Assembly: GCA_964016885.1 (NCBI GenBank)
Contig: OZ024751.1
Location: 36,084,001-36,148,000 of the forward strand
Direction: 5' to 3'
Length of the DNA: 64,000 nucleotides
DNA from: Eledone cirrhosa
Taxonomy: Eukaryota
Notes under the pieces: model-generated
The model's database searches: none
Seen by the model: the letters and a program-made list of their open reading frames with translations, nothing else
What the model was told of the DNA's origin: nothing
Shown here: in pieces, positions 33,511 through 58,240 of the stretch
Position numbering within the stretch: position 1 is the stretch's first letter
Layout: each line of letters starts with the position of its first letter
Made by a program: the position numbers and the translations under genes

Positions 33511-36500
33511 TGATGGCTGCCCCCTCGTTATCGAGTATGGCCATTGCACAATAAAAAAAAAAAAAAAAAAAAAAATAATAATAATAATAATAATAATAAT
33601 AATAATAATAATAATAATAAATAAATAGAAAAAAAAAAAAAAAAAAAAAAAGGGAAAAGATATATATATATATATATATATATACACACATATATATACA
33701 TATATATATACATACACATATATATACACACACACATACATACACATACATACATATATACACACACACATACATACACATACACTCACACATATATACA
33801 CACATACATTAATAACAATAATAATAATAATAATAATAATAATAATAATAATAATAGCAATAATATTAATAACGACAACAACAACAATAATATACATATT
33901 CATATATATATACACACACACGCACGCACATAAGCATATCTACACACACACACACACACACACACAAACACACGATAGCAACTAACAGTGCTGCGATCGA
34001 ATGTGGCTTTTTAGCCCAGCCAATGATCTAAAATGTCTTGCACAGAGTCGGCAACCAAAACATTTACTGGGAATAGTCGGCTGTGGTTGGAGTTCGTGTA
34101 CTTTTGCATGTCGCTTGAGTCCTCCTGCTGATTTACATTCTCTACCACATGTTTGGCAAGCATGATGAGTAGCATCTCCAACAGCAGCCTGGTAGTCAAC
34201 CACTGGTCTTACTTTATGACTGCGAAGATGACTTTCGAGTCCAGCTTTGCTTAGGCAGAGTCTCGCACAGACGCTGCATGTCAGAAACATAGGAGGACCC
34301 TCGCCGTCTGGAAGTGCAACAGCAATACCCTTCCTCACGTCCCGCTTTACTTTCTCGTGTGCGATTCGAGATGCCTCAAAGGCAACTTTTCCCTCATATA
34401 CAGTCTTTCTCCATTTATTACGATCAGCAGCAATATTTTCCCATGTATCAGCAGAGATGTTAGCGTCTCTCAGAGAGGCCTTCAAGGAATCCTTATACCT
34501 CTTTTTTGGTTTATGTGGCGGTCGTTTTCCTTTAACCAACTCTCCATAGAAGAGTTGTTTTGGTATTCTAGAATCCTTCATCCTGGCAAGGTGACCACTC
34601 CAACGGAGTCGCTGCTTAAGCACAAGAGCTTCTATACTGTCACACATAGAGCTTTCCAAAATCTCGACATCACTGATGTGGTCCCTCCAGCGAACGCCAT
34701 GTATCCGTCTGAGACACATCTGATGGAAACGCTCCAATTGCCTAAGGTGGCGTCGATATGTGACCCAGGTCTCGCAGGCATAAAGAAGACAAGAGAGTAC
34801 ACATGCCCTGTACACCCTTACCTTTGTCCTCCTGCATATGTCTCGCCGACCCCAGAGTCGCCTTTCTAGCTTTCCGAAAGCATCACTTGCTTTCCTAATC
34901 CTAAGTGAAATTTCACCGTCAAGGTTGCCGTATCGATTGACAGTGCTTCCCAGGTAGACAAACTGATCAACCACTCCAAGTCGTTTGCCATACACATAGA
35001 TGTTTGGTTCAGTGTACTGCCTACCAGGTGCAGGTTGGTACATGACGACGGTTTTCTTGAGACTGACAGTCAAACCCAGGGCAGTGCAAGCGTCAGAAAA
35101 TACATTCAAAATGTGCTGCATATCACTCTCTGTGTGCGCTACAAGATCGCAATCATCTGCATACAAGAGGTCTCTTATGACCGATGTAAATACCTTTGTC
35201 TTCGCAGCAAAGCGCCTGATGTTAAATATGCTGCCTGAGGTTCGATATCGGATGTAAACACCATGCTCGCAATTCCTGAATGCAACACAGAAAACCATTG
35301 CAAAGTATATGGCAAACAGGGTCGGTGCTGGAATATCCCCCTGTTTCACTCCATTTTTTACTGAGATAGGCTCCGACATGTTACCTCCGACATTAACCCA
35401 AGCCTTCATGTCGTCATGGAAAGACCTAACTAAAGCAAGGAACTTATCAGGGCAACCAAGTTTCTGGAGAATCTTCCATAATGCATCTCTGTTGACAGTA
35501 TCGAAAGCCTTTGTCAGATCGACAAAAACCTGATACAGATCCAAGCCCTGTTCAATGCACTTCTCCTGGAGCTGTCTAGCTGAGAAGATCATATCAGTAG
35601 TGCCGCGTCCAACACGAAAACCAGATTGACTTTCAGGAAGGACACAATCTGCAATGTGTGTCAGCAGACGGTCCAGAAGCACCCTACATAAAACTTTCCC
35701 CACGACAGAAAGCAATGATATACCTCTGTAGTTCCCACAATAATTCCTGTTACCCTTTCCCTTGTACAAGACCACCATTACTGCATCTCTCCAGTCCTCA
35801 GGCACGGATTCATTAGCCCATATCCTTCCAAACAGAGAGTGAAGATGTTGCAGGAGTCTCTCACCACCATATTGTAGGAGCTCAGCATGTATGCCATCCA
35901 TACCTGGAGATCTTCCACTGTTCAGCTTCGAAATAGCCACTGCAACCTCCACAAGTGTCGGAGGTTCTGCGAGAGCTACTTTCACAGGACTTTCCGGAAT
36001 GAGATTGAGGAAATCTTCACTGACGACAGACGGCTGATTCAAAAGATCATCAAAGTGCTCTCGCCACCTTCGTAGAATTCCCTGTGAGTCACGAAGAAGT
36101 TCTTTGCCATCCCTGCTGCGAATCGGTGTCACCAGAGAAGAAGACGGTCCATAAACCTCACGCAAGAGACTGTACAACAGCTTTGTGTTATTGCAATCAG
36201 ACGCAGTTTGTATCTCACCAGCCTTCTCACTCCACCACTGATCCTTCATCTGAGAAAGACTCCGCCTAACACGTGATTTTACATCCCTGAGCTCCTCATG
36301 CAACGTATTCCTCTCCTGTGGTTTTGCCGTCAAGTAGCGTGACAGAGCACGCCTCTTATCAGCCAACAAGTCTTCTATATGTACATCATTCTCATTAAAC
36401 CAGTCCTGATGTTTTCTCTGCACCAATCCCAGAACACGCCTGCCTACATCATAAACCGACTTTTTAAGGGTCGGCCAATCCTCACCAAGATCTGCAGCCT

Positions 36501-57903: not shown

Positions 57904-58240
57904 CGCGGGGACATAGAAATAGTCGGGCTGGACACCCGATCGCGCGGTTAAACCACTGGGAGTGAAGGACCCCTAGCCTTTCTCAGGGCATTTTTCTAGG
58001 AGAAGGCAACTCAAGAAACTGGGATGACTCCAATATAAAACCTGCGGCTCAGTAGTTACCGATGATTATTGATCTTTTCTTCTTTTCGGGTTATAGCTAC
58101 TGTCGCTCAGAGAGTGGGATTGGCTCAGTGCACAGTCTTTCCTCACTTTAAAAATATCTTCACGCACAGGCATTGCACGATAGAATTAATAATGGTATAT
58201 CGTGCAATGGCCATACTCGATAACGAGGTGGCAGCCATCA
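57904..58240 (+). mobile_element. Non-autonomous bipartite RTE derivative (5' UTR + 3' terminus, ORF deleted)
   Basis: 57904-58180 matches the reverse complement of ~37638-37914 (roughly 90-93% by manual count). 58202-58240 matches the reverse complement of 33511-33549 with one mismatch. Followed by a long (TA/TACA)n tail. Confidence 0.92.

Follow-up and report, generated by a model that had tools for sequence, protein, structure and literature searches.

The window analysed here is a 64,000-nucleotide stretch of Eledone cirrhosa DNA (assembly GCA_964016885.1, contig OZ024751.1, positions 36,084,001 to 36,148,000 of the forward strand). On its minus strand, at 33511–38513, lies a young RTE-type LINE copy whose best 40 genome matches are 99–100% identical. 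The copy is 5′-truncated at position 38513 and lacks ~620 nt of a 1.6-kb 5′ UTR, which measures 1603 nt in a full-length copy. A single ORF of 1181 aa (33982–37527, minus strand) runs without interruption in the open reading frame list. The encoded protein matches Exo_endo_phos (2e-11) and RVT_1 (5e-30) and carries three C2H2-like fingers at residues 1082–1105, 1122–1144, and 1157–1180, in agreement with the original prediction of an intact zinc-finger LINE. One ORF thus encodes both an APE endonuclease and a reverse transcriptase (RT), with no ORF1, and the neighbouring proteins in a protein atlas have the same two domains. PDB matches comprised L1 and R2 plus two further RT entries, and none bore the name RTE. 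At its 3′ end the LINE has a short conserved tail followed by simple tandem repeats. By anatomy rather than by tree, the long element is an RTE-clade LINE. RTE-2_OV of Octopus vulgaris, compared by its description in the accessible text of PMC9115989, is likewise a single-ORF element with endonuclease, RT, C2H2 finger, and microsatellite 3′ UTR; it encodes 1109 aa between UTRs of ~600 nt, as against 1181 aa and a 5′ UTR of 1.6 kb here.

Two genome searches with the LINE ORF returned 1583 and 1460 candidates, the best of which are 99–100% identical, and the LINE-type junction word has 771 exact genome matches. A 5′ UTR module (37625–37915, minus strand), shared with the short family described below, is present in 28 of 30 copies examined at the ORF start (24 whole, 4 partial), and the 3′ terminal tail (33511–33553, minus strand) is carried by all 30 copies examined at the ORF end. 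The long element therefore represents a genuine LINE family and no single nesting event. Between tail and ORF, the sequence and the ORF-end copies show a microsatellite-rich 3′ UTR (33554–33981, minus strand) that is inherited with the LINE and missing from the short family. An older LINE subfamily, with an ORF 93–98% like that of the window copy, has the same long leader.

Upstream of the module, 37916–38513 (minus strand) is part of a replacement leader not shared with the short family, composed of microsatellites together with part of a dispersed, unrelated repeat. This part comprises ~155 nt (~2180–2335 of L122 in element orientation; 38190–38300 in the window), and the young LINE subfamily lacks ~48 nt of it. 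The repeat has 68 matches in other loci and five in the window, the remaining four at 1947–2067, 60383–60738, 61274–61430, and 62078–62182; it resembles a tRNA-type SINE in reverse and may be one. Four full-length LINE copies (L091, L092, L095, L122) share a 5′ start at GGGAGCTT, and a splice-donor-like GGTAAGT lies ~40 nt downstream of that start. From its letters, this 5′ start could possibly be a captured host first exon.

The second element (57904–58240, plus strand) consists of an RTE 5′ UTR part and a 3′ end only, with neither an ORF nor a coding remnant. Positions 57904–58193 align to LINE positions 37914–37625 with 268 of 291 identical (92%), and 58198–58245 align to 33553–33506 with 45 of 48 identical, flank included. 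Both elements stop at the same final letter, as had been predicted, and a TA/TATG-type microsatellite follows. The original prediction described the short element as the whole ~280-bp 5′ UTR of the LINE joined to its tail. The joining of the two parts stands, as does the reported lack of a tRNA head and coding remnant, but the LINE 5′ UTR is ~1.6 kb long. Alignment to the family continues upstream to 57839 at 88%, so that 57839–57903 (plus strand) may be a remnant of a microsatellite-like spacer, indistinguishable from the microsatellite of the target.

A genome search with the short element gave 2277 candidates, and the best 40 of these are nearly full length and, apart from the element itself, 92–95% identical. 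The 32-letter junction word has 1957 exact genome matches, and its reversed control has none. At 4–6% divergence, these exact matches imply roughly 7,000–14,000 copies of the family, which we call family A. Insertions show variable 5′ truncation and a fixed 3′ end, and most flanks are TA/TATG microsatellites. In 40 copies taken by position order from the junction matches, 25 have a head upstream of cgcgggg, 17 begin within the first 15 letters of this head, and none starts at cgcgggg; five begin in the spacer before cgcgggg, where the boundary cannot be placed. The full-length element is ~620 nt. A second form of ~540 nt, found in 12 of the 40 (L147, L149, L154, L159, L161–L164, L166, L171, L177, and L178), lacks positions 224–307 of the 620-nt element and with them the GCGCGGGG stretch. 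The pair of an autonomous and a non-autonomous element, and the view of the latter as a bipartite RTE-derived family rather than a one-off deletion, are thus borne out. The unit itself had been mis-drawn: cgcgggg is not the 5′ end, 337 bp is not the minimal unit, and 57904–58240 is a 5′-truncated copy of a dispersed family of 540–620 bp.

Several copies (L053, L059, L117, L007, L020, L160) have an inverted 5′ part, as twin priming would give. RTE LINEs and short families stack head to tail at TATG microsatellites, often in each other’s tails (L029, L103, L133, L294). The junction of the short family also occurs, over 57941–58228, on one contig labelled as a second organism (organism B, run X4).

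A SINE in the strict sense, with pol III transcription and a small-RNA head, was ruled out: ARAGORN found no tRNA in the short element, the 111 weak Rfam matches in four loci included no tRNA-, 5S-, or 7SL-type family, and four short-family copies contained no A/B box pattern. Rfam ribozymes had no match in the same number of loci, and a strict P1/P3/L3 pattern for HDV-like ribozymes, which a deviant ribozyme could escape, found none in eight sequences. A MITE was rejected because the inverted repeat, lying 31 nt short of the 3′ end, is internal and not terminal. The output of a repeat finder run across the whole window was swamped by microsatellites.

The short element is a high-copy bipartite non-autonomous RTE derivative of the Bov-A type, a new family of a known type. 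Like the bipartite RTEs in the accessible part of PMC5786205 (Bov-A from BovB, RTESINE1/2, WALLSI3, RTE-N1/N2_Lch), it joins a 5′ UTR part to an extreme 3′ end, lacks an ORF and a small-RNA head, and combines a microsatellite tail with high copy number. By eye, it also has the RTE 5′ UTR motif TCTAGGAGAAGG as printed there for the Ceph-domain, and a 12-letter motif of the long element agrees, again by eye only, with the OegopSINE/RTE-3_BF alignment in the portion of the supplement available. Many SINE families of an octopus genome are unclassified, according to the available text of PMC13282606, so a repeat library may already contain the short family. R2 SIDEs, as presented in the accessible portion of PMC3414825, are likewise internally deleted non-LTR elements with both ends kept. 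Their 5′ end is kept for an HDV-like ribozyme, whereas none was detected in the short family; a 5′–3′ helix is not described in that portion. In itself, the LINE and short-element pair belongs to a familiar type and is nothing out of the ordinary.

The original prediction overlooked a helix between the two retained parts. At the junction, the end of the 5′ UTR part and the start of the 3′ tail compose a predicted hairpin of 12 Watson-Crick pairs (58171–58209, plus strand; 5′ arm 58171–58182, 3′ arm 58198–58209) that appears in both the MFE and the centroid structure; the fold of the 337-nt element has z = −2.5. In the LINE the two arms lie 4.1 kb apart on the minus strand, CATTGCACGA at 37638–37647 and TTGTGCAATG at 33542–33551, and are complementary over nine Watson-Crick pairs and one G.U pair, which would allow a long-range helix. 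A small hairpin in the shared tail, CTCG-ATAA-CGAG (58216–58227, plus strand), also appears on folding and is a candidate RT recognition loop. Small hairpins in a shared tail are known from stringent LINEs and RTE/Au SINEs (available parts of PMC6007223 and PMC5135761). Those are local 3′ structures, whereas one strand of the present helix has to come from the 5′ UTR.

The same two arms are complementary across 3–4 kb in three autonomous lineages and also in three further short families. The helix has 12 pairs in family A, 11 in older LINE copies, and 10, one of them G.U, in the window LINE, whose helix is the weakest (−12.8 kcal/mol). In short families B and C the pairs number 15 and 13 and differ in sequence from those of A. 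An old copy of family C, which is also bipartite, lies in the window (14751–15265, minus strand); it shares the head and encloses a short zinc-finger-like remnant between complementary arms of its own. Unbroken runs of at least nine pairs were found in 65 of 90 copies of A, a sample biased by the choice of 40 loci for an exact 3′ arm and 20 for a mutated 5′ arm, and in 55 of 64 copies of B and 7 of 9 of C. In family D the arms pair with bulges only, and ungapped runs of at least nine occur in none of eight copies. Among loci with both of their own arms, 62 of 66 positions are paired in the older LINE (6 of 40 loci; L129, a neighbouring short copy, was left out of this count), 96 of 110 in autonomous family E (10 of 20 loci), and 38 of 40 in autonomous family G (4 of 20 loci).

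Pairing is kept while the letters change. Depending on the family, position 7 is A-U, U-A, or C-G and position 4 either U-A or C-G; at position 11 the short family has U-A where the older LINE has G-C. Across six lineages, the pairing of each arm with its cognate was the best of 720 permutations. Since the lineages are related, visual inspection had first pointed out the arms of A, B, and C, and that of G was found through complementarity, this 1/720 is no clean probability. Family E is the sole lineage in which the place of the arm was fixed before its letters were read; there the arm again follows GCACAGG as anchor, and it pairs with the family’s own tail. A strict reverse-complement prediction of the E arm failed, giving 32 matches of which all 20 examined are point mutants of family A, and a revised prediction was one letter off. 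The strict complement of the tail of family F, represented by one decayed copy, likewise failed, with no matches.

In five of six autonomous copies the 3′ arm finds its best partner, out of the whole element, in the true 5′ arm. Whole-element MFE predictions close the helix across 3.5–4 kb in two of five elements and do not form it in the other three, the window LINE included; since the pieces submitted to folding ended close to the arms, these predictions favour end-to-end pairing. In a duplex scan with the whole 43-nt tail, the ORF start (~37440–37400, minus strand) outscored the 5′ arm both in the window copy and in four of five older copies. From complementarity, this stretch (~37400–37440) is a possible alternative partner of the 3′ tail.

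We infer from the complementarity and covariation that the arms pair in cells and that the helix has a function. The reading we consider probable is that the RTE RNA is closed by this helix beside the small 3′ hairpin and that the element’s protein would use both as a handle, so that derivatives would have to keep a 5′ piece. Two alternatives bear on this step. The helix could be real and yet serve only translation or RNA stability by closing the mRNA around the ORF, with the short families keeping it since their deletions cross its base. The 5′ arm does lie 60–110 nt upstream of the start codon in lineages A and E, and the stem brackets exactly the part deleted in family A. However, the non-coding families A, B, and C retain 12–15 pairs, at least the length found in the LINEs, and family A has its own matching change at position 11. 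In addition, B and C keep ~130–150 nt between their arms, which indicates that the deletion did not cross the base of the stem. We regard this explanation as unlikely, although it is the one among the alternatives that survives best.

The second alternative, that the complementarity has no function, is distinctly less probable. One arm would repeatedly be rewritten from the other by template switching, or an old inverted duplication would be drifting slowly. This fits with the weakest helix belonging to a very successful young LINE and with the twin-priming inversions in several copies. Against it, the tolerated changes are mostly G.U wobbles (position 9 in the young LINE, positions 3 and 5 in B, and A/G at position 8 in E), which copying would not favour and which thus speak against template-switching rewrite, and the arm is fixed after a GCACAGG-like anchor in five lineages whose modules are ~70% alike.

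The accessible part of the PMC5786205 supplement prints 5′ and 3′ segments for six autonomous RTEs, in which we judged complements by eye and without a control. In BovB, ACCCCATGAA and TTCATGGGGT give 10 pairs, and in BOVA2 one A-U pair of this helix becomes G-C. RTE-3_AMi (CATGACATC with GATGTCATG) and RTE-1_PSi (CTTGACATC with GATGTCAAG) give nine pairs each, and one compensatory change separates their helices. RTE1_LA has eight pairs, one of them G.U, and RTE-11_AMi has one stem of seven pairs and one of five; RTE-4_PPo has six low-complexity pairs only. Pairing between the 5′ and 3′ parts of bipartite elements is not mentioned in the text of PMC5786205 available to us. The structures in the accessible portions of PMC6007223, PMC11240701, PMC3747384, PMC3414825, PMC4844689, PMC5135761, and PMC3531059 are local 3′ hairpins only. 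No report of a helix between 5′ UTR and 3′ tail was found in the partial texts covered, a literature outside of which lie Gogolevsky 2008 (the likeliest source of an earlier one), a 2011 SINE review, Repbase, and Dfam.

Divergence from the own majority over the shared block is 3.7% in the short family (n = 28), 2.0% in the older LINE (n = 6), and 0.0% in the young LINE (n = 24). The majority of the short family differs from the LINE majorities by 4.3–5.1%, and 10 of 13 variable columns set it apart from both LINE subfamilies; on these columns, the short family is best placed as a sister lineage of the present LINE. The ~8% difference between short element and LINE had been taken to argue against a fresh local deletion. 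A one-off event is indeed not what is found, but the figure is composed of 2.6% private change and ~5% fixed between the lineages. The nearest non-self match is 95% identical for the short element (best 40 of 2277 candidates) and 97% for a near-majority copy (best 40 of 955). With a sister lineage and no young copies among these best 40 candidates, the predicted mobilisation by this exact 1181-aa protein today is unsupported. As the family (3.7%) is older than the LINE (0.0%), it was most likely copied by an ancestor of that protein.

The LINE sequence upstream of GCGCGGGG shows no relation to the short family’s head, whose best match anywhere in the young UTR spans 13 letters. Autonomous family E runs in the order head, spacer, GCGCGGGG module, arm, and ORF, and one copy of family G has head, spacer, module, and ORF; the heads of A and E agree at 147 of 172 positions. 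Because the head occurs in these autonomous families, the short family appears to retain the ancestral 5′ end, which the living LINE swapped. In none of 40 older-subfamily LINE loci is the head connected to module and ORF, and a head-bearing autonomous parent of lineage A was found neither in these 40 loci nor among the matches of a hybrid pattern (6 of 6). One short-family copy (L292, ~1500–1600) has LINE-type letters just after the 5′ arm and may be an intermediate or a converted copy.

The short family would thus be a fossil of a 5′ end lost by the living LINE. This distinguishes it from the bipartite RTEs in the available part of PMC5786205, since its 5′ end no longer fits the living partner LINE, which changed leaders. 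Tobacco SolRTE LINEs, in the accessible text of bioRxiv 10.1101/2022.11.04.512097, similarly conserve ORF and tail while the distal 5′ UTR is replaced. Here, unlike in tobacco as that text presents it, the lost 5′ end survives in a non-autonomous family, and the replacement stops at the module holding the helix arm.

Two further readings are very improbable. The original prediction itself, a 337-bp unit that has its internal promoter at cgcgggg and is mobilised now by the 1181-aa protein, draws on a tail that hardly differs from the young LINE’s and on a LINE similarity that begins exactly at GCGCGGGG, which marks a natural module boundary, but it conflicts with the upstream extensions and the lack of starts at cgcgggg in the sampled copies and with the absence of any pair above 97% among the best 40 candidates of either search. 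In the reverse direction, an RTE ORF would have inserted into a short element copy and adopted its ends, as the position of the ORF in the hairpin loop of the short element and the greater age of the short family relative to both sampled LINE subfamilies might suggest; against this, autonomous family E (~50% protein identity) has the same module and arm before its ORF and a matching tail after it, which makes the layout ancestral, and older lineage-A ORF copies with unrelated flanks were found in none of 40 loci.

The history we favour can be outlined as follows. The 337-bp repeat is a 5′-truncated copy of an older non-coding RTE family made of an ancestral 5′ UTR and the last 41–43 nt of the LINE. 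This family would have arisen when a head-bearing ancestor lost the ORF between the arms, and the ancestor’s own protein would have copied it. The surviving LINE lineage would later have traded its head for a captured leader of 1.3 kb, keeping the module and both arms. In the RTE RNA, the arms would pair and close a loop that the element’s protein uses as part of its handle, and the helix would be needed for efficient retrotransposition. A helix that forms part of the handle would also account for RTE derivatives keeping a 5′ piece as well as the tail.

Internally deleted derivatives with both ends arise in few LINE clades, “for unknown reasons” in the words of the accessible part of PMC5786205. 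More tentatively, and with somewhat less confidence than doubt, we propose that in RTE RNAs in general, as far as BovB, a selected, family-specific, and so far undescribed helix closes a loop; this helix would be part of RT recognition and would explain the bipartite RTE-derived SINEs. The helix makes the question left by that text, of why so few clades give rise to such derivatives, a testable one. If the helix holds, template recognition by RTEs would require both RNA ends, which would bear on cis preference, on the set of SINEs open to mobilisation by a given RTE, and on the design of RTE-based insertion templates.
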